The position numbers and the translations under genes are program-made. From Massalongia carnosa (lineage: Eukaryota), in the NCBI GenBank assembly GCA_965645245.1, contig OZ287082.1, positions 372,001-436,000 of the forward strand: a stretch of 64,000 bases of DNA. The letters run 5' to 3'. The notes beneath the pieces were generated by a model. It was not told where the DNA came from, made no database searches, and saw nothing but the letters and a program-made list of their open reading frames with translations. The first letter of the stretch is position 1. Every line of letters starts with the position of its first letter. Shown here in pieces: positions 1,338 through 58,330 of this stretch.

Positions 1338-2080
1338 TAGTAATTCGGCTCGCGCGAAAGGTAATGCCGGGACCGAGTGGAGGCAGGCCGCGGATAGCCG
1401 ACGAAGGCCGAAGGTCGGATGTCCAAATAGTTGGACGTGAAGGGGAGAAAAAAGCATAAATAGGTGGCCTTTTGGCACTCTTCTCCTCATTATTACCATT
1501 GGTTCGGAGTTCAGCACCCAAATGTCTTTTGAAAGTCTTTCCCGAATTAAATACATCTATCAATTACTCACCCCCAATCCCATCATTCCAAATCACCTCC
1601 ACCTCTCACTCTATATTACCCTCCACACTGAGCCTATCATGCTTTTCCATCGCCCTCAAAGAATCATCAAGCCCTTCGTCTACTTCGAAAACACCTCCGG
1701 GATCGGTCAACGTTTCACTCGTTCCACCTGATCCCCTAAAAGAGGGGTCATAATTTCAGAAACACAGCCTCCTTCGAACACTCAAGGTTGGGAGGGAACA
1801 CTTCGGGACGATGTGATAGACGTTCATCGAACATTGGAATCAATCTCGGATCTGCTGTTGGATCTCAGGGCTCAGCAGGAGGCCACAAGGAGACCCGTCA
1901 CCTTCAAAAATCAAATCGCCGACAACTTGGCGGCCATTCAGCGCATAAGGGAGGGAAACACAGTCCCCGACGGAGACATCAAGGGACTACCCCACCTGAT
2001 TCGCTTCCTTGGGGTGCATTGGCAGGTCTTGCTTCATTTGGCATCATCCGGAATAAAAGAGAGTCTTTGTAGGGCCTTTC

Positions 2081-7193: not shown

Positions 7194-10100
7194 TCTAGAA
7201 GAAGCATAGTGTAACAGGTTTTCTCTCTTTGCATCAGTCATTGCAGGGTCAAAGCCTAGACTGAGGAGATACTGAAAATCTTTGAAATGCCCGCCTCTGG
7301 CGGCAAGCTGAAGTGGCGTTCCATCGTGTAGATCAAGCAGAAGTGGAGTTTCATAGTATTGCTCGTAGATTAAGCGCAATAAATCCGTATGACCTTGAAG
7401 GGCAAGGAGATGCATGAAGGAATCATAGTCACAATCAAGAGATTTGAGATCAGAACCGGCTTCTAGAACTAGCTTGACGACTTCGACACGGTCACTTTCA
7501 CCGGAAACCATAAGTGCCTTACAAATGTCCTTCGGCATATTGACGTCGGCGCCGCGCCGTTATCGAGCAGCAGCCTCACAATCTGCTCGTCGCCTCTATT
7601 AGAAGCTACTATAAGTGCGTTATCACCGTCTAGATCCTGAGCATTGACGTCGGCGCCGTTATCGAGCAGCAGCCTCACAATCTGCTCGTGGCCTTTTTCA
7701 AAAGCTAATATAAGTGCGTTATCATCGTATCGACCCTGAGCATTGACGTTGACGCCATTATTGAGTAGCAGCCTCACAATTTGCTCGTCGCCTCTTTTAG
7801 AAGTTACTATAAGTGCGTTATGACCGTCTCGATCCTGAGCATTGACGTCGGCGCCGTTATCGAGCAGCAGCCTCACAATCTGCTCTTTGCCTCTATTAGA
7901 AGCTAATATAAGTGCGTTATCACCGTATCGATCCTGAGCATTGACGTCGGCGCCGTTATCGAGCAGCAGCCTCACAATCTGCTCTTTGCCTCTATTAGAA
8001 GCTACTATAAGTGCGTTATCACCGTATCGACCCTGAGCATTGACGTCGGCGCCGTTATCGAGCAGCAGCCTCACAATTTGCTCGTGGCCTTGATATGAAG
8101 CTGCTCTAAGTGCGTATTCAAAATGTCCACCTTGCGCATTGACGTCAGCGTCATTATTGAGTAGCAGCCTTACGATTTGCTCGAAGCCTTTCTCGGAAGC
8201 TGCCGTTAGTGCGTAATCAAAATATCCACCTTGTGCATTGACATCAGCCCCTTTTTCAAGTAGCAACTTTACAATCTGCTCATGACCTTGTTCAGAAGCA
8301 CTCTGAAGTGCGTTGCTGTTCCAGCCTTCTCCATCCTGCGCGTTAACGTCGGCGCCTTTTTCAATTAACAGCCTTACGATTTGCTCGTAGCCTTTGTCGG
8401 AAGCTGCCGTAAGTGCGTAACCAAAATTTCCACCTTGCGCATTGACATCAGCCCCTTTTTCAAGTAGCAGCTTCGCCATCTCAAAATGCCCATCTTGTGC
8501 CGCAAGGTATAGGGGAGTCTGGTCAAAGCTGTCTTTGTTGGTAACTGCGATCTCTACCTCGTGAACTTGGCATGGCAATATTTTCTCTGACATAAGACAC
8601 AACCCAAATCGTGCAGTCAAATGCAAACCTGTTGTTTCCTTAGGATACTGTTGACTGTAGCCCTCAAATTTATAAGCTGGAGCTAATAACACCTGTGCAG
8701 CACATGAAATTAAACCTTTATGAAGAAGAAATGAACAAACTTGCTCACACGCCTCGCCTTGAACTGTTATTGCATGCTCTCCCCAGTGCTTGGCAGCATA
8801 GTCTAGGAATTTGCTTTGCCGAAGCCTTTTCTCAAACTCTTCATCAGTGGCACTACTACCATACTTGAAAGCATCAAAGCAGAGGTAGGTAAGACATGTT
8901 GACGTGATTTGCAGCAGAGCACTAGGTATCCACTGTTCCCTAATGCGCTCAAAGTATTCCTGTGCAGTGTAGTGTACAAGTCGGATTATGTCGCTCTCCG
9001 GGTCGACCACGACAAGACCGGCGCATACTGATATCAAGTCTTCAATTTCAGGTATGTTCTCTGGGTCAAGCTCCATCTCCTCTGGCTCTACTGCCAAAGC
9101 ACAGCATATCTCAGCCGTGTTCATCGGCCTTATCGCGTACGTGATCCAGTAGAGGACCTTCTTTGCTCGTTTCAAATCCTCACTTAGTTGGCATTCTATT
9201 CTTTGAATAGCGCCTCTATATGCGTCATCGAGTGCGGTGAAGCCTTTGGAGAGTCTGATTAAAGTTGATTTAACCTCTTTCGAGGTCCTCTTATCTAGGA
9301 GCGAATCTATATACAGGCGAGCGAGAAGGAACTTAGGAACCAGTAAGCCTATTCTAATCCTAACAAGCCGAGAGTAAAGCTTACATGCCGCTTGCCGCCT
9401 CTATTATTTTGTCTTGCATCAAATTCTGTAGAGCAGCGTCACGCTGAATGCATCTCGGCAGCCGGTGAACCTGACCAGCTACAAACCGCTTCACGTCCTC
9501 GTCGCTTGCCCGTACCTCTAGTCTTAGCGCTGCTTTGAATTCATTAATGATATCTGGAATGTTGCGCGAGGTGACCATTATGCGTAAGTCTGTCTTGGCT
9601 TGGAGATCATGAAGTTTGGCTAGAAAGAGACGGCGAGTGCCATCGCTGTCTCGACACTCATCTACAGCATCGATTACGACGTGTACGGCAGATAACTTTG
9701 CAAGCACGTATAGCAGAGCCGCAAAGATCTCATCAACTGACGGTCTCGTCTTCTGTTTGTCATGCTCCACGTATAATCGTTCCACAGGCTCCATAAGTGA
9801 TGATCGGGTCTGTACTAGCTGCTTGAGAATAGCGGCCAGCAGATTGCTAGTACTCTGCTCTTCCTGAGCCTTGTAGTTACAGTATACATAAGCGACTCCG
9901 ATGGAGCTGCTCTGTACTGTCTTCAATAAGTGGTCAACGGCGATGGCTGCTATCATAGTCTTGCCGGACCCAGGAATGCCAGGACAGAAAAGCGTCCCTT
10001 TCGGCTCTCTGAGCCACTGCGCGACCTCGAAGGCGTTGAGAAACCACTGGCCAGTCCCTTGCTGTCTGCGGCCAATGATATCAGATTGTTGTGCAGGAAA

Positions 10101-10706
10101 GTCCGTGGGTGATATCCATTCCATGAGCTTGCCATGTTGCGCATGTTCGGCTTCATGCCGTATGAAGTTAGTATCGTTCCTTATAAGTTCCACGTTACTG
10201 CGGGTTGCATCTCCACTCTCTTTCATCGCTTGAGATAGTTTACTTGATACGTTAGCGACCTCATTAAAATGTAGCTAACTACTGATATGAATTGACAAGT
10301 GATCCATCTGCAATGCAACCTCTACGAGTGTCTTTAGGCGTTCCATCCCGCCTAATATACTGGCAATATCCTCTTTCTTAAACATTCATACTAACGCCTT
10401 GCCCGCCTTCCTTATCTTGCCCCCGCCGGTTATCTTTTTCTGTAGCTGCTCTAGCGCTTGCTTGAACTGATCAAGCGGACCATTCTCAGTTGCAAGGACC
10501 CGGACCGCAGTGTAACACGGAGTATTAGAGTCTCCTTCCTCGAGGCGGAACCTGAGGGCTGTGAGAAGACTGTGAAGGTTGGCTGCCTCAACCGCGCAGT
10601 TTGCGCGTTCTTTCGAGGCATCTTCAACATCGATCAGGTATCCAAGAACCTTACTCGAAAGCTGGAGAATAGCAATAATGCTTGCTGTTGTACTGATTGG
10701 GTCCAT
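7194..10706 (-). pseudogene. Fungal NLR-like gene (HeLo-like N-terminus, NACHT NTPase, ankyrin repeats), pseudogenised
   Basis: N-terminus MDPISTTASIIAILQL; NACHT Walker A GIPGSGKT and Walker B VVIDAVDEC, plus RLVHYTAQEYF; more than 10 ANK repeats. Introns at 10243-10296 (GT..GCTAAC..AG) and 9333-9384. Lesions: TGA at 10386-10388 (W expected), the intron-2 acceptor reads AA instead of AG at 9333, a 5-bp GCGCC duplication near 7549-7558, and a 3' end replaced by an LTR fragment. Confidence 0.9.
7540..8480 (-). repeat. 99-bp ankyrin-coding tandem array with high internal conservation
   Basis: The unit GCATTGACGTCGGCGCCGTTATCGAGCAGCAGCCTCACAAT recurs about every 99 bp; protein unit EQIVRLLLDNGADVNAQ. 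Confidence 0.95.
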
Positions 10707-28447: not shown

Positions 28448-29093
28448 CGAAAACACCAGTTCAATTCAAGGAAAACACTAGTTCAATTCAAGAACCCTGG
28501 CGTAATGGAAGGACACCTATCGAAACACAAGTACCGCAACTTTTGATACTCTATAACTTTAACAGTCAATTGAGCCTCTATTTCTCAGTCATTTGAGCTC
28601 CTCCAGAGCAAAAACGCTCTCAGATTGAGTGTAGGAGAGCTCTAGCAATACTCCAGCAGAGTTTTTCTGCTGGTCGCACGCGACCGACGTGATAAAGCGC
28701 GCTCTAGAAGTCGGAAAAAACAACAAATACTAACAACATCACCAAAAATCGCTCTTTTTTCTTGTTTTCTTCTGTTCTGTTGTCGCATGACCTTCAATTA
28801 TTACTATCAAAATTATCTACAAAAAATATCTACTCTCGCGGGACTGTACAACAACTGTCGCGACGTCAAAGTCTTCTAAAGTTCATTCCTCATTTAAGGT
28901 TACGGGAACTTCCGCAAGCACAAATTTTCACAGCATATTTCACGTATAATTTTTGCAAATTCCATTTTCGGCTTTATCGATCTTTGTTGAACGGCCGGTC
29001 AACAGATTACTGAAAAGAAGGGGAAAAACGTCTGGAATAGGATTATACCAAAGGTCCTGTTTCAGACTAATCAGAATAGGAAGTCTCGTATTG

Positions 29094-31115
29094 ATTTGAT
29101 TTGATTATTCTTACGCCGTTGTGTCACCGGCCGAAGGCCTGCCCATGCGGGAGATGCTATATAAGCTATGTAATAAGTAGAAAACCCAAAGGTGAAAAAT
29201 TACTCCTGCGTATCCGCTTCATCGGGGGTTCGCCGCTCCCGCGGATTGATTCGTGTATCTCGAAAATCTGCGATACCTGTTTTTCAAACTGAAGTGAGAC
29301 TGCCCGGCTGCTGTTCAAGCAGTTGCGTGGCAATGGAATACTGTGTTAAAATACCTGTGCGCATGAGCCACGCGGTTACTACTTTGAGAGCTTTGGGTTC
29401 GGTGATTAGCTTGCGGTAGTCTGACGAGCCTGCCGTTCGTAGCATGTGCGTTCTGTGTTCGTGCAGTCTGCAGAACATGATTACATGTTTGGCTGTATGT
29501 AAGAGGCTTCCGCAGGGACATGCCGCCGAGTTCACACCTGGGACCTTGCGCCGATATAGAAAGTTGGCCAGTCCGATTTTTTCCGTTCTTATCTGTGTTG
29601 CTAGTGAGCTTTGCGCTTTGTCTAGTAACTTGTGTACGTTAAGCCTTTTCCTGTGTATAGGCGCCTGTTGTGCGATCGTGGGATATAACGTGTGTTTTGC
29701 TTGATATGCTTTCCACTTGTAGATCCACTGATTCTCAAAGTACTTCTTTATTATCCCGTCTTGTTGGTTCTGCGTCGTTACTTGCGCTGTGCGTTGTCTC
29801 TTCTGTGCCTCGTCGATCGTTGTCCAGGGAGGGGGAGAGGGTTGATCCAGTTTTACTGTTTTCGGTGCGTCTTTCGTCATCTTTGTTACCCATTCTCGTT
29901 TACGAGTTCCCGGTGTTTTTTCTGCGACTCGCGATTGACCTCTTTTGCCTCTGAGTTTCACTTGGATTCTATTGCACGCCTGCTTTATAATTTTTTCCTG
30001 TTCGCTGTTCGAGATTCTGGATCTCGTTTTTGTTTGTAAGCGGTCTAGATGTTGCGTTAAGGGAGGGATGTGGGTTTCTGCCTGTAATATTTCAATTGGG
30101 GTAGCCTTGTACGCTCCGGCTATGACTCGTAAACACTTGTTTTGTATGACTTCGAGTTTGCTTCTTGATTCGACTTTGGCTTTCTTTCTTGCTTCGGCTG
30201 GCATGTGCCATGCTATCGAGCCGTGCGACATGGCGGGGCGTATCACTGCTGTGTATACGTGGCGGGCTCGTAGAAGGGTCGCCCCCCAGGTTGAGGCTGC
30301 GATTTTGGTCAGTGCCATTGTTTGTCTCGTCATTTTCTTCTGAATTTCCTTGTAATGCGCTGCCCAATCGAGTCTAGTGTCAATGTATACTCCCAGGACT
30401 CTTATCGAAGTCTTGGTCTTCAGGATCAAGCCTCTTACCGCGAAGGATGAGTCCAGGTTGAATTTCTTTGGATTCTTTGCCAGGTGTATCAGCTCGTATT
30501 TGTGTGGCGCGAATACGGAGCCGTGGCGAGCGGCCCATCGTTCGCAGTCGTTGTGTATTTTTTCCAGCGTTTTGCAATTCTCTTCGGTAGACTTTCCGTA
30601 CGCCAGTATATTGACGTCGTCTACGAAACCCATGCCCGCTGCGTTGGTACCTGGTCTATTGCAAATATTGAGTAAGTCTGCATTATAAAAGAGATATAGA
30701 ATGGGAGACAAAGGAGATCCTTGCGGAATTCCTATATTCAGCTGGAATGCGTTGGTTGTTCGTTGATTGATAGTGAGAGTGGTTTCTCTTTCCTTGAGGA
30801 AGCTTTCTGTCCATTTCGTGATCCATTCCGGAATTTTTCTCTTTCTCAGATTATGAATGAGCCTACGATGTGAAACCGTATCGAAGGCGCCTGAGACGTC
30901 GATACTAAGAAGCGATGCTACTTTGTCTTTCCCTTGATTCCAGACCGTGTGTACCTGCTCCGTGAGTAGTTCGAGCGCTGTGTCCGTTGCGCGGCCTGGT
31001 CTTGCTCCCATTTGCGTGTCTGGAATTAATCTGAGTTTTTCCGTTAAATAGCTTATTTTCCTTGCTATAATGGATTCTAGCATTTTTCCAACCGTGTTTA
31101 GGAGCGCAATAGGCT
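29094..31115 (-). mobile_element. 5'-truncated family-B LINE (RT C-half, zinc finger, 3'UTR, TCAAA-type tail)
   Basis: ORF 29284..31083 has GIPQGSPLSP, GFVDD and CPCGSLLHTAKHVIMFC. Tail ATTTGATTTGATT on + near 29094; 3' stem-loop at 29122-29151. Confidence 0.93.
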
Positions 31116-33096
31116 AAGAATGATAAAATAGAGTTGACATCTCCTTCTTGAAGTCTCCATCCCAGTTTTCGTTCATCTCACTGGTGCGTTTTACGGCCCA
31201 AGACTATTGATGAATTCTACGATTGGGGTGAACGACGTCCCTTTCGCCCAGGTCAAACCCAGTTTACTCCTTAAGCATATATCAAGGGCGAGTCTAGCCG
31301 TAGCCCATGCGCCGGCGAACCGACGGGGTATCGTTACGAGCGAGATAGACATTCCCTGCTCTATATATACCGACATGCGCATACTGTCCTCTCGGGCTAT
31401 GCAGACGGTCTCCGTACGGTGGCCGCCATTGTATACCACGCCTCACGGGTTTTTTACGCCCACTTCGCGTTATTCATAAAGGTCTCCCGTTTATGAACCG
31501 ACCATGTCTCGCAGGGATTTCGACAGCTATGCTCCTTACCAGGCAGTATAGTATCGATTTTCCGTCCCTACTAACCAAAACAAGTCGAGGACAACTCGGA
31601 GGGGTGCTCGTTTGAAATTCGTCTATTAGCTCAGGGCCTAGACTGTTATCAATTAACGGGTTCCTCGTATATTGCCCTCTTCTTGTCCCAAGGGTGTCCT
31701 ATTTGATGACTAGGTTGCCTCCACCATCCCCGGTACGACTCCGGTTCGGGCCGTGTTGCTCACGGTAGCCATCAATCGGATGGTTTTCATAACCCGAATC
31801 CCTTGTATCATGTAGGGTGTGACCCTACATTATGTGTCTATATATTTTATTTCTTTCAGCCGGAGGGCTCCGTGCTGTAGACGAAGGAGATCCGTGTGAT
31901 AGACATAGCTGACCCGTGTCGTACGTCTATAGCTCTCAGCCGATGACTACATGAAAGGACTTGAACCTTTAAGAGTATGACCGAACGTTGTTAACGAGGT
32001 CTATGAAAATCTTATTAACAAGGTCTTCGAGAACAATATTAACGAAGTTTCGCTGAACTCTTTTCATTCGTTTTGTGATCCATCGAGGTCTACCAGTGTC
32101 AATTCCACACCATGCCCGTGTCAAAATACATTATTTTCAGCTGACGACTGTTAGAAAGGACTTGAACCTCTAAAAATATGTACTCCGATATTAACGGGGT
32201 GCAGATCTGTCTTAACGAGCCTCCGCAGAACCCCCTTCACAGGGACGTGTTATTGATTTATGACTGTGTTTCTTGTGACTGTATGTTTTGTGACTGTGTG
32301 TTTGTGACTGTATGTTTGTGACTGTGTACTTTGTGACTGTGTGCTTTGTACAACGTGTGATTGATGACTATGTGTTTTGTGACTCTGTTTTCCTCGATTT
32401 TATTTAACAGGCCGGGCCTATTAAATGGGATATTGTTATTCTGCTCCGAGATAGAGTTTTCTTGAGGTGACAGCATTCGCCCCGGTGCCTTTACGCGTTC
32501 TGTTGATCCCAGCTGATGACTGCCTGGGGAGACGTGAACTCTCAGGAGCTAGAACACGTGTCGACTGTGCCCGGGTGGGGGATGATGCGACTCCTTTGGT
32601 CCACATCTTATTCCAGCTGATGACTGCATGAAGGGACTTGAACCCTTAGAAGAATAGTGCAGGGACGCGCGCATTCTACCCCCCGGCGGTTGGCCTTCGT
32701 ATGCTCTTCCATACGTACGTCTGCGACGCGTGTGAACGCGTTAAATTAGCATTGTTTTGATGCGAAGAGATAGGAGCAAATCTATGTTTGACGGTCGCCC
32801 CACGGTGAGGCCTTTGGCGTCTCCGTGGTGAGGACCGATGGTGTAGAAGGAGGAGGACCGATGGTGTAGGCTCGTCCGTCTCGAGTCTTATCTGTATCGA
32901 GTTCTGATATTCAGCGGTGAAAAGAGCTCAGAATATCAGGAGCACCGTTTAGGAAATGAAATGTAACTGCATTGCTCTCGAGTGCAAGATCGTTTACTAT
33001 TAAGCTTTTCCATTGTATCATAAGAGTGGAGAAGGTGGCATGCTGATCGTTGGATCTCGTAGACCTGAAGCCTGCTCAATCACGAGGGAAGGAACC
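31116..33096 (-). other. Unidentified ~2-kb non-LINE segment inside the same TSD as the 29094-31115 LINE
   Basis: 15-bp TSD GGAAGTCTCGTATTG at 29079-29093 and 33097-33111. No similarity seen to LINE ORF1/ORF2 elsewhere in the window; contains repeated motifs. Confidence 0.75.
32260..32386. repeat. Minisatellite of 14-15 bp units (TGTGACTGTGTGTT-like)
   Basis: At least 6 TGACTGT-cored units in tandem, with degenerate copies following. Confidence 0.9.
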
Positions 33097-34543
33097 GGAA
33101 GTCTCGTATTGTCTTACATTGCATTAAAATTTATCTTTATTGAAAAAGCAAAAAAAAAACTTTCATTATATTCACCAAATTGTAGTGTCTGGTAAAGGGT
33201 TAAATCAGATTTACTGCCTTAGCGAGGAACGGTCTATATTAACCCGATTAGTATTTATTTGACGCGTTATAGTCAAATAAATAGGGATAGGAAAGAAAGA
33301 GTCATTTGACCAGTAAACAGGTGTAAATTATATTCTGACTAGTACGTCCGGGGAAAGTCAGAATAAATTATTTGGTGGCGATAAAAGGAATATTGCAAAG
33401 GCAAAAACACTATTCTCAATCGAAGGTTTAACCCGATAGGTCAGAGAACAAATCGATTGATATCAACAACTCCTCCCCCAGGCCCCCCTCCACAGCATCT
33501 ATGGGTCCCCCCGAGTACACCCCCGGGCCCCCCCCGAATCGACTCCCCCACGCCATCTTCGGTAGCGATAATTGGGAGCACCCCCTAACCGTAGAGTTCA
33601 CGGAAGCCATGGACCTAACGCGAGAATTTTCGTCCGCACCGTCCACACCCACCCCAAAAGCGAAATCTTTTGTCGCGCCATCTGGTGAATTCAGTACTAA
33701 TCTGCCCATGCCATCATTAAATTCTGATATTCGACTGAGTCCACCAATTAAACGCAACAAAAGACGAACATTTAACGAACATTCGATTGAAAGTCAAGAA
33801 GTCATCAATCGACCAAAATCGATTCAACTATTGAATACGGCAAAAAATGCATTATTGGAGGCATTCGTATTAGATCAAAACCCCGAAACGGCTATGGTCA
33901 TCTATCACGGCAATTCTCTACTGACAAAAAAACCGATCAAGCAAAAAGATACGTTAGAATTAATTGATTGGAAATTGAATAGGGTGCTAGAAAAAACTAG
34001 CCAAATTCCACAAACAAAGTGACAATCGGTGCGACCTATACAGACAAATTTGAAGGGAAATTCAAATGGAAATTCGAATTTGACTAAAAACGTCAACCCA
34101 GCAATTCGGAGCGAAACAGCCGGAGTCCCAGGGCCGCAGGTCAACGATACAGCTAGAACATGGAGCCAAATGCTCGGAAAAGCGACTGTCAATTCCGAAA
34201 ATTGGAATACCGTTCCTCGATCCAAAAAAACAAAATAACAACAAAAACAACAATTCGAATGCGAACAAATTCGATAATTCTGACGATTTCAAGGCGATCA
34301 AATCTCGACGGTTGATAATCATACCGAAAACTCAAATCGGCGATATCGATTCACTGTTGCTTCGAAACCAAATCAATTCGGTTTTTAAAGACGCGAAATT
34401 GACTATCGTTATTAACACGGTCGAAAAGTCCAAAACAGGTCAAAACATCATTCTGAATACTAGTCCTGATAACACTGCTGATGATTTATTGAACAATAAA
34501 TCAATATGGGAGCATTTATTCGACCCACGAATAGTTCGAAAGG

Positions 34544-36954: not shown

Positions 36955-37267
36955 ATCATCAAGCTATCCTAGTATCCATTTTCTAGTCGCGATTTTGTTA
37001 TTGACAATGAATTTAATCAAAATGTCATTTCCGATTTTTGTATTAAACAACATATTCAAGTTGATAGTAGTATCGACAGTTTGTTTCATGAGTTGAATTT
37101 CATCGAAATAGTGAATGCAATTCAATAACAAGTGTTCTGGTGTTTGTCGTTGATTGCATCGATTTGTGCATTTTGAGGAGTTATAATCTTTAAATCGATG
37201 TAAATATGATCGAAAATAGCCATGTCCGAATTTTAATTGCATAATAGTAGCTAATATCAATTTGGAA
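36955..37267 (-). mobile_element. Inverted fragment of family-A ORF2 C-terminus
   Basis: The minus strand reads SKLILATIMQLKFGHGYFRSYLHRF...KIATRKWILG. Confidence 0.88.
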
Positions 37268-40200
37268 CGGAAGGAAAATTCTACTAACGGAAGGGGCGAC
37301 CATGAACGAAAATCTCGTACCAAGAAGTGCACAGTGCGAAAGTGAGCATAGAAAGGTGAATGAGTCTCTGGTAATTAAAATCAAAGAGTATCTTGACCGT
37401 GTGGGTAACGTAGGAGACCCGATAGCGTTGCAAATTTTGCAGGAATCGAGAATTGTGCTGGAGGCACAAAATCAATTAGACAAAAAATCGCACGACACCA
37501 CACATGTGGTATCTGCTCTAAATGATATCAAAAGCACTTTACAGAGAAGTGAAAGCAGAATAGAGATCCCAACAGTAAGGAACTATGCCGCCGTCGCCGC
37601 GGCGGGACACCTCAATGAGGGCGGATCTGTGCCGGTTCGAAGCACTCTAAACAACGTAAAGACGCAGAAAGCGAAGGAACAAACACCAAGTATGATCAAA
37701 AGTGCAAGGGAACTCACCATACGAGTGACGAAGAGCGAGGATCGAGAAAGAAAAAAGCAAACGTCCACAAAGGACTTGGTAGAGGCGCTACAGAAGAGAA
37801 ATGCAGGAATAATAGGAGTATCGCGTCTCAACAGTGGAGACATTAGGATACATACCGAAACGGCAGCGATTAAGAAGTCTCTGTATGACAATACGGGCTG
37901 GGTGCGTGAAGTAGCCGCATCGGCAGCGGTGCAAAGGCGTACCTTTGCCATACAGGTACGTGGCGTCAGGATGCAACACATCGACGTCACCAATCAGACG
38001 AGAGCCATTGAGTACCTACATGCCGTTAATGCACGACTGCATGCGGGACTGAAGATCGTAAAGGTCGCTTGGTCCAACAAGGCCATCAGAGAAGGAAAAG
38101 TGCACTCTACGCTGCACATGGAAGTTGAAACTGCACCGATGGCCAACCGGCTCATCAACGAAGGTCTGCTCGTAGACTACGAGATCAAGCACTGTGAAAG
38201 ATTTCACAAAAATAACATACTAGTGCAATGCTTCAACTGCTATAAGTATGGGCATATCAGCAAATGGTGTAAACACCCCACGGCCTGTAGGCGTTGTGCC
38301 GGCGGATATCCTACGCACGAGTGCAATCCCGAGACGACCGGAGCCCACCCCATGTGTGCCACGTGCGAGAAGCCTGGTCACCTAGCGTGGTCCCCTGTGT
38401 GTGTGGTTCGAACGAAGGAGAAGAAGAAAGTAAACGACGCAAGGAAAAGAAAAGCGCATCTATACGAAGCTGAAGGGCTGGCGCTGGCGCCAGCATTCAA
38501 TTTCGGAGCCAGCAACCCCCCAGCAGAGGCAAGGACTACAACGGTAGACCTAGACTTACGGACGGAAGACTTACCTACCACGTGGAGTCTTATCAATGGG
38601 AAAAAAAAGGAAAATATCGCGCACAATAACCCAATCCGCCACACAGGCGAATGAGCCGAGGCTAAACATGAAACAAAATATCGATACCACAATTACTTTA
38701 AAAATGTTGTTTAATACTAGGATCGGAAATAATATTTTGATTAAATTTATTGTTGATAACAAAATCGCGACTAGAAAATGGATGCTAGGTCAGCTCGATG
38801 ACGAAAATATCGAAACCGGAGGTTGGGGAGAGATCGAACAGTAAAATTAGAAATGATTTATGCTGGAATATTTACGAGCTTTACAAAAACAAATTGTAAA
38901 ATCGATATTTCGATTACTAAAGGTTGTTACTAACACGGAGTAAAAACGGGGCAATATTGACGATAGATAGTTGGGTTATAAAGGGTTGATTTATTTGTAA
39001 AATAAAACCATATCTTAAAATAGTTTAGTGTCATAACCTTAGGTTGAATACACTTAATGAATAAATAAAAAAAAAAAAGAATGAGCCGAGGAGTCTATCA
39101 GGTGCCGAGACCGGAATCACATGGAAGGACATCGAGATCATGAACCCGGCAAACAGAATAAGGGCGATGGCGAAGCCCACTCTGGGTAGACCCCCCAACG
39201 CTGTCAATAGTGCCCCCTGCCCCCCTACTACCCTATCTCCTCCCATCCCTCTCCCATCTAAACCAGCAGTCACCCTAACCGCTCCGCCCCCCACCAACCA
39301 TCCCACCGCGACCGCTCCGCAAGGGGCCCACTTGGAAGTACAAATCCCTACCCAATCGAAAACGACTCCCTCGAGAGACATGGATGAAGCTTTATGAAGG
39401 ACAAAAAATTAATTAGCATCCTACAGTACAATGTCAGAAATGATCGCGTAAGTACTATGATACCATTGCTAGCGGATTCAAATATACAGGACTACGACAT
39501 CATAGCAATCCAGGAGCCGTGGCGCAAACCCCACGCTGCGACCACGCTCAGCCCGCATCAAAGCGGCTTTCATCTACTCTATCGGCCAGGAGGTGACACG
39601 AGAGTGTGCTTCTACATCAACGATAAAATAGATCCGGAAAGCGGGAAAGTGGAATTTCCAACCGCTGACATATGCATATTGATATTGCACCCCCGCGAGA
39701 ATGACGGAAGCCACAAGGAAATACATATTCACATCGTCTATAATGCATCACCCACCTTATATTCTTCAAGAGACAGCCCCTCCACCCTCCCAGATGCTCA
39801 ACGCCAGCTCTCCGCCGACGCTCATCACATCTTACTCGGGGATTTTAATCTACACCATCCTTTCTGGAATGGAGCCACCAGACCCACGCAACACGCAGCC
39901 GCGGATCAGCTGCTAGATATAGTCAATGAAGCCAATCTGTCGCTAACCCTGCCAAATGGAACCGTCACATGGGAAGCCCGAAACTCATTCAGCACCATCG
40001 ATTTGGTTTTCATGTCAGAATTCCTAACAGAGAGGCTAATTCACTGCATGTCAAGACCAGAACTCAATCAGTCATCCGATCACATTCCGATATCCTCCCG
40101 TATCTCTTTGGAATGTAAGACACTAATACAGACAAAACGCAGAGCCTGGAAGCTGCTGAACATGGAAAAGTTGAGAACAGCAGAATGCAACGCTCCCCCA

Positions 40201-41823
40201 ATAACACTTCCTTGCACAGTAGAGGAGATTGATCGACAGACGGATAAAATACAAAAGTTCTTACATGAAATAATATCTGCGGCCGTTCCATGGGCAAGGT
40301 CTAGTGCTTATGCAAAACTATTCTGGAACGAGGACTGCAACAACGCCATGAGAGAAACACGCAGAATTCGAAAAATTTGGACAGCCTCTCGAAATATCAA
40401 TGACTGGAAAACGTACATGAAATCGAATGACAAAAAGCAAAAGATAATCAAGAAAGCTAAAACATTGTCATTCCGAAACGAGATCAGTAAAGCGTCTGAA
40501 TCATCTCAGGGCATATGGCGGCTGGCGAAATGGGCAAAGGACAAGAGTCACAAGGCGCGCGAAACACCATAAATGCCAAAACTGAATTTCAACAATCACA
40601 GCGCGAACACCTTTGAAGAGAAGGCTGAAATGCTGAAAGGCATCTTCATTCCTGCTCCGCCTCCGGCGGGTCTACAGGACATACCCGGGTCGGTCTATCC
40701 GGTAGCCTCGGAGTGCCCAACAGTCATAATGAAGAAAGAGGTGCTCACGAACATTCTACGCCTCAAACCTGACACGGCTCCTGGACCGGATGGCATACCC
40801 AACAGAGTTCACAAAGCGTGCTCTGAGACGCTGACAGAGTTGTTAACTCCTCTATTTCAGGCGTGCGTAAATCTGGGATATCACCCGCGAGCATTCAGAA
40901 CAGCGCACACGATAACGCTGAAAAAGGCGGGCAAAGACAATTACGAAACGCCGAAGGCCTATCGCCCGATAGCACTGCTGAATACGCTAGGCAAGGTGAT
41001 GGAAGCCATCATGGCAAGCAAGATCACTCACATGGCCGAAAAGCACGAGTTACTACCAGGCACCCAGATGGGAGCCAGACGGGAAAGGTCTACCGAGTCA
41101 GCACTAGAGCTGTTAACCGAACAGATTCACAAAGTGTGGGGTCAAGGTAATGATAATGTTGCCACGCTGCTCAGCATGGACGTGGCCGGCGCGTACGACA
41201 CGGTTTCACATCAAAGACTGATCCACAATCTTCGAAGAAGAAAAATTCCACAGTGGGTCACCAACTGGATATAATGCTTTTTGAAAAACAGAAGGATCAC
41301 TCTTACGATCAACCGACGAACCACCGACGAGTTTGATGCCAGAACCGGAATTCCACAAGGTTTACCCATCTCTCCCATTCTGTATTTGTTCTACAATGCG
41401 GATTTACTAGACATATGTAACAGGCCCGGCACGAAAACGAGCGGACTCGGATTCGTCGATGACATCAATATACTAGCAAATGGGAAAAGCACGCAAGAAA
41501 ATTGCAGAACGCTAGAAATAATTCACAGAGAATGTGAAAGATGGGCTCTACGGCACGGATCCTTATTTGCTCCGACTAAGTACGAGCTTATTCATTTATC
41601 TAGAAATCCAAAGAAATTTGATTTGACGGCTACTATTAATATAGAAAACAGCCTAATCAAACCAAAAACGGATATAAGAATACTCGGTCTTCAAAATAGA
41701 TACTAAACTTAAGTGGGGTGCTCACATACGGAAAACGCAGGAGAAGATGGTCAAGCAGAGCATGGCCTTAACAAAAATCTCCACGTCTACATGGGGAGCT
41801 TCGTTCGCTAGGGCAAGGCAAGG
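37268..41823 (+). mobile_element. Family-B Tad1-like LINE, 3'-truncated (ORF1 with CCHC knuckles; ORF2 EN-RT with stops)
   Basis: ORF1 from 37302 (QCFNCYKYGHISKWC), resuming after an insertion to 39397. ORF2 from 39394 (QYNVR, IQEPW, GDFNLHH, SDH, FVDD). Stops at 40570 and 41272; frameshift ~41700. Confidence 0.92.
38662..39078 (+). mobile_element. 5'-truncated family-A LINE 3' end inserted into family-B ORF1
   Basis: TSD GAATGAGCCGAGG at 38649-38661 and 39079-39091; poly-A tail; near-identical to the reverse complement of 48361-48775. Confidence 0.93.
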
Positions 41824-42750
41824 AAGCTGACCTAGTATCCATTTTCTTGGAAAGACCACCTATCGAAACACAAGTACCGCAACTTTGATACTCTAAAAAC
41901 TTTCACAGTCAATTGAACATCTCTTTCTCAGTCATTTGAGCTCCTCCAGAGCAAAAACGGACTCAGATTGAGTGTAGGAGAGCTCTAGCAAAGCTCCAGA
42001 AGAGATTTTCTGCTGGTGGCACGCGACAGACGTGATAAAGCGCGCTCAAGAAGTTATAAAAAACAACAAATACCAACAATATCACCAAAAATCGCTCTTT
42101 TTTCTCACTTTCTTCTGTTCTGTTGTCGCATTACCCTCAATTATTACAACAAGAATTATCTACAAAAAATATCTACTGTCGCGGTACTGTACAACAACTG
42201 TCGCGACGACCAACTTTTTTGAAGTTCATTTCTCATTTAAGGTTACGGGAACTTCCGCAAGCTCAAATATTCACAGTATATTTCACGTATAATTTCTGCA
42301 TATACCATTTTAGGCTTTATCGATCTCCATTGAACGGCCGGTCAACAGATCACTGAAAAGAAGGGGAAAAACGTCTGGAATAGGATTATACCAAAGATCC
42401 TATTTCAGATTAATCAGAATAGGAAGTCTCTTATTATCTTACCTTGCCTTAGATCTATTTTTATCGCAAAAAAGCAAAAAAAACCCTTTCATTATTTTCA
42501 ACTATTGTAGTGTCTGGTAAAGGGTTAAATAAGATTTACTGCCTAAGCGAGGAACGGTCTATTTTAACCCGATTAGGATTTATTTGACGAGTTATTGTCA
42601 TATAAATAGGGATAGGAAAGCAAGAGTCGTTAGACCTGTAAATTGGTGTAAATTTCTATTCTGATTAGTACGTCCGGGGAACATCAGAATAAATTATTTG
42701 GTGGTGATAAAAGGGATATTGAAAAGGCATATCGATTTATTTATTAAATC

Positions 42751-51437: not shown

Positions 51438-54400
51438 GATTGATTGATTGATTTTTCTTACGCCGATATGACACCAGCTGAAGCTGGCCCATGCGGGAGA
51501 TACTACATAGGCTATATAAAGGCAGAAAACCCGAACGGGTAAAAAACTGCTCCTGCGTACCAGGTTTGTAGAGGACTCGCTCTTTCCCCGGGTTGATCTC
51601 TACGGTTTGGGAAACCCGCTATACCCGTTATGCGCCTGAGTAAGTGCAAGAATAAAAGAGAAGAAAAGAAAATAAGTAGAAGAAAAAACCAATTCTCCTC
51701 TCATTATTGCTCCGTCATTTGCGCGGCAATGGTGTACTGTGTTAGTATGCCCGTACGCATAAGCCATGCAGTGATTATTTTGATCGCTTTGGGGTCTGTT
51801 ATCAGTTTTTGATAATCCAGCGAGCCAGCTGCACGCAACATATCGATTCTATTATGCAATCCGCAGAACATTATCACATGTTTCGCCGTTTGAAAGCGGC
51901 TTCCGCACAGGCAGGCCGCGGACTCAATGTCTGGCACCTTGCGTTTGAATAGAAAACTCGCTAACCCGATTTTCTCTGTTCTAATTTGAATTGCGAGGGA
52001 GCTTTGCGCCTTATTCAGCAGCTTGTGCGTGTTCAACCTGTTTTTGTGCAATGGACCCGACTGTGCTATTGTTGGATCAAGCGTATGTATTGATTGATAC
52101 GCTATCCATTTGTCCTTCCATTTTTCTTTAAATCGTTTCGCTATGATTCCGTCTCTTTCTCTTTGAAGTGCGGCATATTCTGCTCGTTTTTCCTCTTGTG
52201 CATTCTCCGCTTTTTCCCATGGTGGTGTGCGTTTGGGCTTTCTCTTTGTTGATACTTCAGCTGTCAGCTTGGCCACCCATCTCTGTCTACGAGCTCCCGG
52301 TGTTTCTCCAATAATCCGTTGTCGCCCTCTTTTCCCTTTCAATCTCGTTCTGATTTTCTCGCATGCCTGTTCTATGACTTTTGCCTGACCGTTGTGTTGT
52401 AGCCTCGATCTACCTTTGGCCTGCAGATGATCCAAATGTTGCGTCAATGGACAGATGAATGTTTCCGCCTGTAACACCTCGATGGGTGTGGCCCTGTACG
52501 CTCCGGCTACTACTCGTAAACATTTGTTTTGTACGATCTCGAGTTTGCTTTTCCTCGTGACTTTGACGTGCTTTTGTGTTTCCTCCGGCGTGTGCCATAC
52601 CAGAGAACCATGGGTCATTGCCGGGCGTACCACCGCCGTGTACACGTGACGGGCTTGTAGGAGGGTCGCACCCCAAGTGGCTGCGGCGATTCTAGTCAGC
52701 GCTCTCGTTTGTCTCGTCATTTTCTTCTGTATCTCTTTGTAGTGCGCCGACCAATTGAGCCTCGTGTCTATGTACACCCCCAGCACTCGTACAGATTTCG
52801 TGACGTTGAGTAGTTTGCCGTTTACTGTGAAGGAAGCTTCGAGATTGAATTTCTTGGGATTTTTTGCTAGATGTATGAGCTCGTATTTATGCGGCGCGAA
52901 CACGGAGCCGTGGCGTTTCGCCCATCGTTCGCAATTCTCGTGTATTTCTTTCAATGTTTTGCAATTTTCTTCCGTGGATTTGCCATATGTCAGGATGTTC
53001 ACGTCGTCTACGAATCCTATGCCTGCCGCGTTTGTGCTGGGTCTATTGCAAATGTCTAAGAGGTCCGCATTGTAAAAGAGATATAGAATGGGAGATAGAG
53101 GAGATCCCTGAGGGATTCCTATGCTCAGCGGAAATGCGTTAGTGGTGCGTTGATTAATCGTGAGCGTGGTTTCTCTTTCTTTCAAGAAACTATCCGTCCA
53201 TTTGGCTATCCACTCTGGGATCTTTCGTTTTCTCATGTTGTGAATGAGCCTACGATGAGAGACGGTGTCAAAGGCTCCCGATACGTCTATGCTCAATAGA
53301 GATGCCACTTTATCGTTACCCTGATTCCATACGGTGTGCACTTGTTCAGTGAGCAGCTCCAGTGCTGTTTCCGTTCCGCGGCCCGGCCTTGCACCCATTT
53401 GAGTATCCGGGATCAGTTTAAATTCTTCCGTCAGATGGCTAATTTTCCTTGCTATAATGGATTCCAATGCTTTGCCCAACGTGTTCAACAACGCTATGGG
53501 TCTCCATGCCTTGGGATCCGTATAGTTTCCTTTTCCTGGCTTCTTTAGCGTGATAGTGTTGGCGATTTTAAAGACTTTCGGATGATATCCTTCATTCACA
53601 CATGCTTGAAAAAGTGGTGTCAGCAATTTGATTAGGTTTTCTGAACAGGCTTTGAGAATTCTATTTGTGATTCCATCCGGTCCTGGGGCTTTGTCTGGCT
53701 TTGGCTTTCGCAGCGCCGCCGCCACTTCTTCTTCCGTTATCAGTGCTGGACATTCTGGTGTTGGAGGGTACGAATATCCTACGAGATCCCCGAGATCCGC
53801 GTTAGGAGGAGGGGGAAAGAAGGACTTCTTCAGCATATTTACTCTCTTCTCGAACGTGTCTGCTATCGTATTGGGATTTTGTGCTGTTGCTAACGGGGGC
53901 ATTTTTGGAATTTCTCTTGGTGCGTCGCTTCTGTCTTTGCCCCATTTTGCGAGTCGGAAGAGTCCTGTTCTTGATGCTGCAACTTCGGCCATTTGTTCTC
54001 TGAAATGAAGATTTCTTGCCTTACCGATGATTTTCTGTTTTTTGTCGTTCAATCTGATGTAGTTTTTCCAGTCTGACAGATTTCTTTCCGCCGTCCAGAT
54101 CCTACGAATCCTGCGGGTCTCCTTCGTTGCCTCCTCGCACTCTCTATTCCAGAAGGACTTCGCCTGGGGACTAGGTTTAGACCATGGTACCGCCTCCTGA
54201 ACGATTCTTTTGAGGTAGTCTTGAATATCTGCAGTGTATGCATCAATTTCGTTGGCGCCTCGTACGACGCGTGGTGTGGGGGCATTTCTCTCAACTTCTC
54301 TCAGTTTATTCATGTCCAGGAGTTTCCAGGCTCTTCGGCGGGGAGGCGTAAGGGGTTCACAGGTGAGGCGGAGCCTCGTCGATATTGGTACGTGATCTGA

Positions 54401-54653
54401 GTCTTGATTCAGCTCCGGGACTGTGATACAGTGTTCCAATCTTTCTACGAGATCTTCCGTCATGAACACCAGATCGATGGTGCTGAATGAGTTTCTTGCC
54501 TCCCATGTCACTGTTCCTCTTGGCAGGGTGAGCGAAAGATTTTTACTTTCAATGATGTCTAGTAGCTGTTCGGACGCCTCGTGTTGACCTCGCACTCTCG
54601 CACCTCCCCAATGTGGATGATGAAGGTTGAAATCCCCTAGCAAGATGTGTTCT
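51438..54653 (-). mobile_element. 5'-truncated family-B LINE inserted into family-A ORF2 in the same orientation
   Basis: 13-bp TSD GGTTTAGTGTATT at 51425-51437 and 54654-54666; (TCAA)n tail; 3' stem-loop at 51469-51497. Confidence 0.95.
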
Positions 54654-55837
54654 GGTTTAGTGTATTTATAAGCTGTAAATACGTCTTTATTCGCTGCGTT
54701 TTCGAGGAAAGCCAACCAAGTTTGCTGTTTCGCTTTTCGAATTGCATGAAAGTACTCGATTCGACTATGTCTAAATGTTTGATGACTAAAATAGGACGGA
54801 TTATTCTTCCATTCTCGACGATGTCTACACATGATTTTTCGAAGTCCGGATAAATCTTGCGACCACCAATTTTTCGATTTTGCGCATATTTTTGTCTTCG
54901 GAATAAACATTTCAGCCGCGTTTTTGATAACGTTTTGCAAATATAACGCTGATTCATCAAATTGATAATTGTTCAATAGACTTTGTATTTGGGACTCGTA
55001 GTTTACTGCATTTTCGTCTAGAAACTTCGCGAATTTATCCCAATCGGCTTTATTGCAGTTGTATTTATTCGATAATGCGGTTGCGTGTGACGTCAAGTTC
55101 TTGAAAGACGCGATAAGTTCAAATCGAATAACTTCATGATCTGATCCCGTGACTGCGTTTTCATCGATTGACCAATTTGTAATTGCGTTTTCGATTTTAG
55201 AATTTGCAAATGTTAAATCAATAATAGATGAAGAGTTTCCTGAATGAGCAAAAAATGTATATAGATCAGGCGTATTTATCAAACTACATTTGTTTAATTT
55301 TAACCATTTGACTAGATTTTCTGATCGAATTGCATTTTGAATCTTCGAATTCCACCAGCTATGATGTGCATTGAAATCTCCACATATGACAAATTGATCA
55401 GTTGATATAGGTTGATATTTAACTAAAAGTCGATCGATTGTATATGTTTCTCGATCGTTTAGACTTTTTTCATTGTAAAGGTTAAAGATCTGCACTTTTC
55501 GAACTTCATCAATTGTAATTTCGATAATTTGCAGATCAGTATCGTTTATAAGATCCGTTCTAGGCGTGCATTGTAATTTTGGATTGCATTTTGTAACGAA
55601 TATAGCTACTCTCGGCCGATAAGTCGCTATTTTCGGCATAATACATGTGAATGACGGATGGGAAATTGTTTTTTGATCTCCCGTCCATGGTTCCTGAAAT
55701 AAAACAATATCAACACGATTTAATACTGCATATTCCAGACACGAAATCATTGCATTCGTTGACTTTGCACAATTATGTTGAATAAATTTGACATTTTGTG
55801 TATTTTCGATATTTGTCAACGAATGTTGTCCCGCCAT
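51704..55837 (-). CDS. Chimeric 1377-aa LINE ORF2 (family-A endonuclease fused in frame to family-B partial EN, RT and zinc finger)
   Basis: Uninterrupted ORF; junction ...AYKYTKP|EHILLGDFNLHH...; two GDFN/SDH sets; FVDD; CLCGSRFQTAKHVIMFC. Confidence 0.88.
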   Translation of the reverse strand: MAGQHSLTNIENTQNVKFIQHNCAKSTNAMISCLEYAVLNRVDIVLFQEPWTGDQKTISHPSFTCIMPKIATYRPRVAIFVTKCNPKLQCTPRTDLINDTDLQIIEITIDEVRKVQIFNLYNEKSLNDRETYTIDRLLVKYQPISTDQFVICGDFNAHHSWWNSKIQNAIRSENLVKWLKLNKCSLINTPDLYTFFAHSGNSSSIIDLTFANSKIENAITNWSIDENAVTGSDHEVIRFELIASFKNLTSHATALSNKYNCNKADWDKFAKFLDENAVNYESQIQSLLNNYQFDESALYLQNVIKNAAEMFIPKTKICAKSKNWWSQDLSGLRKIMCRHRREWKNNPSYFSHQTFRHSRIEYFHAIRKAKQQTWLAFLENAANKDVFTAYKYTKPEHILLGDFNLHHPHWGGARVRGQHEASEQLLDIIESKNLSLTLPRGTVTWEARNSFSTIDLVFMTEDLVERLEHCITVPELNQDSDHVPISTRLRLTCEPLTPPRRRAWKLLDMNKLREVERNAPTPRVVRGANEIDAYTADIQDYLKRIVQEAVPWSKPSPQAKSFWNRECEEATKETRRIRRIWTAERNLSDWKNYIRLNDKKQKIIGKARNLHFREQMAEVAASRTGLFRLAKWGKDRSDAPREIPKMPPLATAQNPNTIADTFEKRVNMLKKSFFPPPPNADLGDLVGYSYPPTPECPALITEEEVAAALRKPKPDKAPGPDGITNRILKACSENLIKLLTPLFQACVNEGYHPKVFKIANTITLKKPGKGNYTDPKAWRPIALLNTLGKALESIIARKISHLTEEFKLIPDTQMGARPGRGTETALELLTEQVHTVWNQGNDKVASLLSIDVSGAFDTVSHRRLIHNMRKRKIPEWIAKWTDSFLKERETTLTINQRTTNAFPLSIGIPQGSPLSPILYLFYNADLLDICNRPSTNAAGIGFVDDVNILTYGKSTEENCKTLKEIHENCERWAKRHGSVFAPHKYELIHLAKNPKKFNLEASFTVNGKLLNVTKSVRVLGVYIDTRLNWSAHYKEIQKKMTRQTRALTRIAAATWGATLLQARHVYTAVVRPAMTHGSLVWHTPEETQKHVKVTRKSKLEIVQNKCLRVVAGAYRATPIEVLQAETFICPLTQHLDHLQAKGRSRLQHNGQAKVIEQACEKIRTRLKGKRGRQRIIGETPGARRQRWVAKLTAEVSTKRKPKRTPPWEKAENAQEEKRAEYAALQRERDGIIAKRFKEKWKDKWIAYQSIHTLDPTIAQSGPLHKNRLNTHKLLNKAQSSLAIQIRTEKIGLASFLFKRKVPDIESAACLCGSRFQTAKHVIMFCGLHNRIDMLRAAGSLDYQKLITDPKAIKIITAWLMRTGILTQYTIAAQMTEQ

Positions 55838-57420: not shown

Positions 57421-58330
57421 GGATTTATAAATAATCGATGTTGCCTTTGCTATATCCCCTTTATCGCCACCAAATAATTTATTCTGACGTTCCCCGGACG
57501 TAATAGTCAGAATAGAGAGTTTTTACACCGATTTACTGGTCTAAAGACTCTTGCTTTCCAAACCCTATTTATTTGACAATAACAAGTCAAATAAATCCTA
57601 GTCGAGTTAAAATAGACCGTTCCTCGCTTAGGCAATAGATCTTATTTAACTCTTTACCTTGACACTACGATATATGGAATATAATAAGAATTTTACGATC
57701 GAACAGAAAAATTTTTATTTTTTTTTTAAAAAATGTTCTTGATCCAGAAATAAAAATCAAGTACAATGAGAGAGAGGAGACTTCCTATTCTGGTTAGCCT
57801 GAAACAGGGCCTTTGGTTTAACCCTATTTCAGACGTTTTTCCCCTTCGTTTCAGCAGATTGTTGGTCGGCAGTTCAACGAAAATCGAAAAAACCCAAAAT
57901 GGAATAGTGTATACGGTACCGGTAACCTTAAATTTCAAATGAAAACCAAGAAGTTTTGTTGTCTCGAGAACAGGTTGTACAGTTACGCGACAGTGATGAT
58001 ATTTTGTAGATAATTTTTGTGATAATAGATGAGATCTATGCGACAATTAAACCGAAGAAATATCGAAAATCGAGCGATTTTTGACGTTGTTGTTGGTGTT
58101 TTTGTGTTTTGTAGATTTTTTGGACGCGCTTTTTGGTTAAGGGGCGGACAGACCGCGAGGAAAACTCTGCAGGAGCAGTGGAAGAGCTCTCCTGTACCCA
58201 ATTCTGATGGGTTTAAGCTTCTGGTAGGCTCAAATGAATGAGAAGAATGAGGAGAATAAGTTGGGAAAGTTTCAGTATATCAAAATATAGGGTACCGATG
58301 TTTTGGGGGTTGGCTTATTGCTGATGAGTG

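Follow-up and report, generated by a model that had tools for sequence, protein, structure and literature searches.

We analysed a stretch of 64,000 nucleotides from Massalongia carnosa (GenBank assembly GCA_965645245.1, contig OZ287082.1, positions 372,001 to 436,000 of the forward strand; hereafter the window), in which an earlier inspection of the letters alone (the sequence-only reading) had picked out four copies of a short motif resembling the T-loop hairpin of a transfer RNA (tRNA). The four motifs are very probably copies of a structured RNA module carried by a long non-coding RNA, here called X, which is joined to a 5'-truncated long interspersed nuclear element (LINE) in a chimera of the type named MINE in Magnaporthe. 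The features of the locus are as follows, in window coordinates.

28506-29093 (+): left half of the 3' part of an older LINE; 28506-29092 matches 41848-42435 at 90%
29079-29093 (unstranded): left copy of the target-site duplication (GGAAGTCTCGTATTG), repeat family D12, located by aligning both junctions to the uninterrupted LINE at 42390-42475
29094-31112 (-): 5'-truncated LINE of the chimera, with a reverse transcriptase (RT) open reading frame (ORF) at 29284-31113 and a 3' tail of AATCA-type repeats
31113-33096 (-): X, the WEIRD-like 5' component of the chimera, ~2 kb, with its 5' end at 33096 and its 3' end at 31113
31247-31840 (-): conserved structured 3' domain of X, in blocks 31247-31579 and 31687-31840, 68-77% identical to >25 loci
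31919-31989 (-): module 1 (covariance model R1, 58.6 bits, E 9.8e-18), comprising closing stem, U, T-loop hairpin, linker and mini-hairpin
32120-32190 (-): module 2 (R1, 58.7 bits), core 32132-32178
32257-32395 (unstranded): 14-15-nt tandem repeats (TTGTGACTGTRTGTT) between modules 2 and 3, repeat families D2 and D3
32492-32562 (-): module 3 (R1, 52.8 bits), core 32507-32547
32596-32666 (-): module 4 (R1, 61.6 bits), core 32611-32651, the nearest of the four to the consensus
32830-32869 (-): tandemly repeated units (GAGGACCGATGGTGTAG) where the 5' end of X usually lies, repeat family D16
32870-33096 (-): extra 5' piece of 227 nt, found in a minority of copies and lying within the target-site duplication
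33097-33111 (unstranded): right copy of the target-site duplication (GGAAGTCTCGTATTG), located by the same alignment
33097-33403 (+): right half of the 3' part of the older LINE, matching 42422-42729 at 88%

X and the truncated LINE integrated as one unit inside another LINE. The two halves of the interrupted element overlap by 14 nt in the reference LINE because the target was duplicated; in the window chimera, for which alone this was determined, the duplication is 15 bp long and has a single counterpart, at ~42425, in the uninterrupted LINE. Between its two copies lies an insert of 4,003 bp (29094-33096) made up of X and the truncated LINE, and the duplication thus also sets the 5' limit of X at 33096. 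The RT ORF begins abruptly at the RT domain (RVT_1, E 7.5e-28, from residue 1), and in tblastn residue 132 of the RT ORF of a fuller copy is the first to which the truncated LINE aligns, other copies extending into the endonuclease. The junction falls between 31113 and 31112, where homology to two full LINE copies begins with CCTATTGCG right after the ...CTTAGC of X, an ending that aligns with the constant ...CTTGG(C) of other X copies. The proposal that the motifs belong to an RNA mobilised together with a LINE is thus borne out by the junction and by a target-site duplication that encloses the whole unit.

Scanning metagenome contigs with a consensus pattern of the motif yielded 42 loci, which fall into 30 non-redundant groups, the window stretch forming one group. 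X is homologous in most of these loci and measures 1.2-2 kb across copies; in alignments it forms a single family of elements of 1.2-1.7 kb. LINE proteins of the window and of loci L007 and L010 were used as tblastn queries against all loci and the results tallied per locus. The X 3' anchor was recognisable in 20 loci, and in 17 of these LINE ORF homology, always in the same sense as X, starts within ~200 nt of the X end. The LINE is truncated within ORF1 (L015, L031), at the start (L007) or the end (L010) of the endonuclease, at the RT N-terminus (L016 and the window) or at RT residues 102, 162, 190, 194, 265, 305, 455, 464 and 490 (L040, L027, L042, L009, L017, L002, L026, L024 and L001/L029/L033). 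The end of X at the junction is constant (...CTTGG(C) or ...CTTAGC) in the window and 13 other loci. Independent junctions between X and LINEs are therefore recurrent.

This architecture recalls the MINE chimeric retroelements of Magnaporthe, which were reportedly described by Fudal in 2005. According to the available part of a later account by Gogvadze et al. (2007), which cites GenBank records EF585235-EF585237, a non-coding sequence of 1.1 kb, WEIRD, is always fused to a 5'-truncated MGL LINE between flanking repeats of 10-20 bp, and the origin of MINE is explained by a template switch of the RT (PMC2104539). The same part of that account treats WEIRD as an RNA distinct from MGL, calls it highly expressed, and reports neither relatives of it in other genomes nor a solo copy or a function (PMC2104539). 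As far as this partial source allows the comparison, the two systems share a full-length non-coding 5' RNA of ~1.1-2 kb, a variably truncated LINE 3' part, many independent junctions, and enclosure of the whole chimera in one target-site duplication of 10-20 bp (15 bp here). At the junctions of the window, L001, L002 and L031, GCC precedes T or A, which resembles the GCC*A/U consensus of MINE, although the comparison is a loose one. They differ in that the available part of the MINE account describes no RNA structure, whereas X has covarying modules and a structured 3' domain, and in that MINE as described there belongs to one fungus, whereas X occurs in the window, in 42 metagenome loci and in sequencing runs labelled with four organisms and a lichen metagenome. 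The likeness drawn here is one of architecture; two WEIRD primers (printed in PMC3978060) had no match in any of the loci at ≤5 mismatches, which means little at such a distance.

A different account of the chimera would make X the 5' untranslated region (UTR) of a LINE lineage and the variable junctions internal deletions. X does always lie 5' of the LINE in the same sense, followed by nearly the whole of ORF2 in L007 and by part of ORF1 in L015 and L031. This account is nevertheless very unlikely, as the junctions fall at many LINE positions while the end nucleotides of X stay constant, and as WEIRD is regarded, in the available text, as an RNA separate from MGL in Magnaporthe (PMC2104539). 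Furthermore, LINEs of the same family stand in the window without X (51704-57522, with ORF1 and ORF2, and 37251-42729), and no second X was found in the window although such LINE copies are present there; X is therefore not simply the 5' UTR of that LINE. The copy at 51704-57522 (-) appears intact, with an ORF2 of 1,382 aa (endonuclease and RT) and a 561-aa ORF1-like frame upstream, and may have supplied the RT that made the chimera.

The four motif copies were found where the sequence-only reading had placed them (31933-31975, 32132-32178, 32507-32547 and 32611-32651; letters checked), with the constant core spacing and the differing yet complementary flanks (CTCT/AGAG, TATTTT/AAAATA, TCC/GGA and TTC/GAA) that it had described. 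The pattern CAGCYGAYGACT-N10-ACKTGAA, allowing ≤2 mismatches, matches four times in the 64 kb, on the plus strand only (31937, 32138, 32510 and 32614), against a mean of 0.00 matches in 100 dinucleotide-preserving shuffles. Lone copies have ordinary folding energies on both strands (z -0.86 to +0.45 relative to shuffles), so that the case for structure rests on covariation between copies. The window copy is a decayed one, since its odd motif letters are private mutations absent from most other copies: almost all of these carry the consensus letter at 31949 (A>G), 32145 (C>T), 32151 (T>C), 32524 (C>A) and 32534 (G>T). The CTGACGA and TTAG variants of module 2 are private in this way (other copies have T at 32145 and C at 32151), as are the ACGTGAA loop and CCTG linker of module 3 (majority T at 32534 and A at 32524), while module 4 shares 97% identity over 37 nt with modules of L031 and L042. 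Rescue of variants by G-U pairs on the minus strand, which had been suggested for two of them, holds for the mini-hairpin of module 1 and the T stem of module 2 and fails for module 3, which has an A-C mismatch (32528/32542).

For a broader view of the fold we built an alignment (A1) of 37 distinct modules from the window and the 42 loci, collected by a pattern that fixes the conserved loops and leaves the stems free, and scored a three-way junction with an 11-bp closing stem on it (19 pairs, 703 cells). Paired cells amount to 80.7%, compared with 68.1% in shuffles, none of 500 of which reached the observed value, and pairing drops to 43-53% when the 3' partners are slid by 1-3 columns. Sixteen of the 19 pairs have changed on both sides; the T hairpin is paired in 94.1% of its cells, the inner four closing pairs alternate between U-A and C-G, and the mini-hairpin shows a single CAG/CUG to GAG/CUC swap. 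RNAalifold, supplied with no structure, recovered the same junction with 13 pairs, nine of them compensatory, and added a U-G pair, which may lengthen the mini-hairpin to 4 bp and leave CAUCA as its loop. The module is thus a three-way junction present in multiple copies, formed by a closing stem, a T-loop hairpin of 5 bp and 7 nt and the mini-hairpin CAG-UCAUCAG-CUG, as had been drawn from four copies; the sequence-only reading had made its case depend on covariation in a larger alignment, and it persists there, both in the pairing counts and in RNAalifold. At full extent the module is ~70-90 nt long, its closing helix leading into the T-loop hairpin and the mini-hairpin CAG(U)-CAUCA-(G)CUG; 4-6 bp of the closing stem remain in the window copy, compared with 11-14 bp in better copies. 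At the sequence level the loop conforms to the T-loop motif (U-U-C-R-A), UUCAAGU being invariant or nearly so and closed by a G-C pair in 35 of 37 modules. The positions of A1 that are invariant or nearly so are the two loop letters following UUCAA (G and U), the U ahead of the T stem and 13 nt within the mini-hairpin; the stems vary.

The RNA sense is that of the window minus strand, the same as that of the LINE. In the T hairpin and inner closing stem, wobble pairs number 39 in the T-loop sense and 9 in the opposite sense (binomial p 1.5e-5, for copies that are not independent), and the fold of the X 3' domain and the orientation of the chimera agree with the minus-strand orientation that had been proposed. 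We also considered the plus strand, where CUGAUGA might mark C-box (UGAUGA) k-turn RNAs, a cluster of C/D small nucleolar RNAs (snoRNAs) or a hammerhead-like core, and where a weak snoR69Y-like match (18.8 bits, E 2.4) lies between modules 1 and 2 (31971-32064, +). Of all the explanations weighed here this is the least credible. The snoR69Y match, the best obtained for a C/D snoRNA, is far under the gathering threshold of 45, lies on the wrong strand and was judged due to chance, and no D box stands beside a terminal stem. The hammerhead was likewise rejected: CUGAUGA occurs only on the non-RNA strand, in a hairpin loop without helix II/GAAA, and no hammerhead model matched at E ≤10. The wobble asymmetry and the sense of the LINE both favour the other strand.

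Comparison with known RNA families gave little. Rfam at gathering thresholds returned no match in the whole window, and only chance-level matches appeared when 31700-32900, 32800-33150, a two-module stretch and six better-preserved loci were searched by E-value. The sole similarity was to the T arm of mascRNA (RF01684; 15 nt, 13.4 bits compared with a gathering threshold of 42.5), and no signal recognition particle (SRP) family matched in these searches, although 50 nt may be too little sequence for these models to score. The 37-copy alignment and the empty Rfam searches therefore agree with the description of the motif as a repeated structured module outside the known Rfam families. No description of the module was met in the literature: the 13-mers of the mini-hairpin, on either strand, gave unrelated primer-type matches among the matches listed, and literature searches on tRNA-like RNAs, T-loops, short interspersed nuclear elements (SINEs), fungal elements lacking long terminal repeats (LTRs) and chimeric retroelements brought up no account of it, subscription papers lying outside the searches. 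With tRNA T arms and mascRNA the module shares a 5-bp stem closed by G-C and the loop UUCAAGU; it differs in having no cloverleaf with acceptor, D and anticodon arms, a mirrored order of elements and the additional invariant mini-hairpin of 13 nt.

A perfect T arm and a B-box-like sequence might be the remains of decayed tRNA genes or of an array of tRNA-derived SINE heads. ARAGORN found no tRNA in 31000-33200, Rfam found no tRNA match, and the D and anticodon arms are missing, so that only the T arm is present and the judgement that these are not tRNAs stands, with no SINE head in evidence. Moreover, the T arm follows the 5' closing strand, unlike in any tRNA, and the mini-hairpin and linker length are conserved as much as the T arm across the 37 copies. 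We regard a tRNA origin of this kind as extremely unlikely.

The modules could alternatively act at the DNA level, as B-boxes that bind TFIIIC and serve as an internal RNA polymerase III (Pol III) promoter or a chromatin barrier. In this respect GGTTCAAGTCC in transcript sense presumably fits the B-box consensus, and an element spread by retro-copying has to carry promoter or insulator signals internally. In its RNA sense X also has fewer runs of at least four T than runs of A (0-3 as opposed to 2-6 in eight of 10 copies, with none in four of 10), a mild scarcity that is compatible with Pol III and not decisive. A DNA-level role leaves unexplained the compensatory changes in the T stem, closing stem and mini-hairpin and the strand asymmetry of wobbles; inspection of A1 by eye showed no A-box-like motif at the proper spacing, and X, at 1.2-2 kb, is well above the usual size of Pol III transcripts, with its first module hundreds of nt from the 5' end. 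The conserved G and U that follow UUCAA in the loop exceed what a B-box or an ordinary tRNA is known to require. A role as B-boxes is accordingly quite unlikely.

X contains no ORF of ≥120 aa in the window copy, and other X copies likewise lack one. In the RNA sense its 5' end carries short tandem repeats whose number varies, followed by one to four modules, which lie in the 5' half of X, and a conserved 3' domain of ~600 nt. RNAalifold on 13 sequences of this domain gave 79 pairs, 37 of which have changed on both sides, with an energy of -64.8 in the RNA sense compared with -36.7 in the opposite sense and 169 G-U cells compared with 27 A-C cells. Two other ideas about the conserved region were dropped. 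It is not a LINE ORF1 or an LTR, as it has no ORF, folds as RNA, and is partly duplicated in L040 in a manner not seen at both ends elsewhere; and pairing of the module with the CATCAGCT stretch in block 2 of X is not conserved in the family of the window. Each module is bracketed by conserved boxes, CTCGTTAA... and ...ACACGGGCC. On the plus strand, TTAACGAG / TTAACAAG boxes stand 15-20 nt past each module and also occur without a module (window 31640-32230 and all X copies); they pair up with an upstream GCCCGTGT box, and the module looks like an insert between GCCCGTGT and the TTAACGAG / TTAACAAG boxes.

The repeats of X vary between copies. Those at 32257-32395 differ in number, the aligned contigs going back 45 or skipping 85, and so do those at 32830-32869, where (at 32842-32869) most other copies diverge from the window; other X families have analogous repeats of ~28 nt at their end. 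Contigs of four public runs (X1, X4, X6 and X7) were aligned to window positions 31400-33050. The region from 31400 to ~32865 is a high-copy repeat in two of them, X1 (2,991 contigs, summed depth 2-7e5) and X6 (95 contigs), whereas X4 and X7 contributed one and seven contigs at low depth. Beyond ~32870-32911 the summed depth drops in X1 (from 2-7e5 to 1-2e4) and in X6 (from 100-1700 to 29-52), after being roughly even over 31400-32870, and the piece at 32870-33096 is thus present in a few percent of copies. This extra piece contains a CTGATATTC...GAATATCAG hairpin, has no Rfam match (E-value search of 32800-33150), and may be a third RNA, comparable with the tripartite chimeras of Magnaporthe, or part of a longer isoform of X.

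These data bear on whether the modules might process or stabilise X, as tRNA mimics recognised by RNase P, RNase Z or the CCA-adding enzyme, as an exonuclease-resistant knot, or as a small self-cleaving ribozyme, in each case defining or protecting the ends of X. The canonical T-loop hairpin with its weak mascRNA similarity (13.4 bits) and the compact three-way junction with invariant unpaired nucleotides would suit such a function, and X needs a defined 3' end; WEIRD is called highly expressed in the available part of the Magnaporthe account (PMC2104539). The modules lie ≥700 nt from the constant 3' end of X and 200-600 nt from its 5' end, however, and at such distances cannot define either. 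Cutting at up to four internal modules would split X, yet full X is copied, with about even depth over 31400-32870; no ribozyme family matched at E ≤10, and the topology is mirrored relative to tRNA. A processing or stability role consequently appears unlikely, though less so than the DNA-level role.

Covariance model R1, built from A1, detected 76 modules in the 185,601 bases of the window and loci, on one strand per locus, and no fifth module in the window. Each X copy has one to four modules, some of them as 183-nt tandem duplications. In L040 (~2650-3400), and likewise in L002, L015, L024, L026 and L034, the module and its surroundings form tandem 183-nt units in two to three copies; in the same X family as L040, the 3' domain is partly re-duplicated beyond the modules. 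The genes neighbouring the metagenome loci look fungal, with Zn2Cys6 and fungal-specific transcription factor domains, ferric reductase and NACHT-type domains. Seven public runs contain the stretch, six under four coded organism names and one labelled as lichen metagenome. The consensus pattern had no match in 185,579 prokaryote genomes or in viral contigs, which is weak evidence of absence as only the exact pattern was sought. Within the window the sole clear host gene is a fungal NLR-like gene at 7469-10274 (-), encoding an NPHP3_N/NACHT-type NTPase followed by many ankyrin repeats; the remainder consists of Copia, Gypsy, LINE and DDE-transposase remains.

The joining of X to LINEs very probably came about when a LINE RT copied LINE RNA part-way, jumped to the 3' end of X RNA and copied X to its 5' end; the X-LINE product integrated as a single unit with a target-site duplication. 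The module could then be an independently folding, multi-copy handle that mimics the elbow of tRNA, the loop of the mini-hairpin docking on the T-loop in the fashion of a D-loop. Such a handle would bind host tRNA-binding factors or proteins of the LINE ribonucleoprotein (RNP), and the binding might keep X RNA stable and near the RNP, making it a preferred acceptor for template jumping. Invariant loops, free stems, a long insulating helix and, in some families, tandem duplication make up the pattern of a self-contained recognition module. In mammals, U6-L1 and other chimeric pseudogenes of small nuclear RNAs with L1 arise when the LINE RT jumps off LINE RNA onto the 3' end of an abundant nuclear RNA. 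These differ from the present case in having a known small RNA as 5' partner, whereas X is long, structured and seemingly found mostly, perhaps only, in chimeras.

We infer the handle by analogy with the SRP9/14-binding fold of Alu and with tRNA-like SINE heads. In the Alu domain of SRP RNA and in Alu and B1 SINEs, a closing helix surrounds two small hairpins to give the fold bound by SRP9/14. The module has the same topology of a closing helix and two hairpins whose loops could touch, and its proposed role, that of a protein-binding fold tying a LINE-dependent RNA to the LINE machinery, would be similar. Alu differs in relying on mimicry at the 3' end for priming, whereas X is added at the 5' end by template switch, and binding of SRP9/14 by X is conjectural. 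Taken alone, the handle mechanism is our leading conjecture, though somewhat less likely than not; identity and mechanism considered together come out slightly on the favourable side. A further possibility, which we hold to be doubtful, is that X represents a new family of large structured RNAs in many ascomycetes, specialised for being picked up by LINE RTs via the modules. In such a family the modules might be RT or RNP handles, either mimicking the tRNA elbow or resembling the junction of telomerase RNA that holds its RT, and X might be a '5' hitchhiker', one class of parasites of LINEs or else a portable 5' end, which spreads by template switch and not by 3'-end mimicry.

Several observations weigh against reading the motifs as structured handles within recurrent X-LINE chimeras. 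The shuffle controls overstate significance because the copies share ancestry, and the outer closing stem shows no wobble asymmetry (21 compared with 26) and 58% pairing in an ungapped alignment. Docking between the loops is beyond the reach of covariation, both loops being invariant, and is thus conjectural. The T arm of a tRNA comes before the 3' strand of the acceptor stem; because that of the module follows the 5' closing strand, tRNA enzymes that measure the stacking of acceptor and T stems may reject this mirrored form. Three of the 20 anchor loci have no LINE homology (L004/L032, L008 and L018, the last with a flank of 123 nt), and about seven further loci contain modules without a recognisable X 3' domain (L011, L012, L013, L019, L028, L037 and L041). 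None of the 13 runs listed is recorded as RNA, which is silent either way on transcription. With regard to the loci lacking a LINE, L032 (~1885-3100; group L004/L030/L032) and L008 have >1 kb of X 3' flank with no detectable LINE ORF homology, and they may be solo copies of X or X joined to an unrelated or decayed LINE.

The sequence-only reading had not seen the closing stem of 11-14 bp, the structured RNA of ~2 kb or the chimeric retroelement; new here are how far the module extends, how widely it occurs, the structured RNA X around it and the finding that it sits in a chimera of MINE/WEIRD type with a target-site duplication. Going by the available part of the Magnaporthe account, MINE and WEIRD have hitherto been an oddity of a single fungus, and the same architecture is now found in a lichen-associated fungal window and in many soil metagenome contigs. 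With the covariance model, X-LINE chimeras can be annotated instead of being left as unclassified repeats, and why LINE RTs jump repeatedly to one RNA becomes an addressable question, as the module lends itself to mutation, to probing and to use as bait. If tRNA factors or the LINE RNP do prove to be bound by the module, fungi would have in it a convergent counterpart of the Alu and SRP9/14 strategy, and if X is specialised for pick-up by the RT, the 20-year-old puzzle of WEIRD would be explained.

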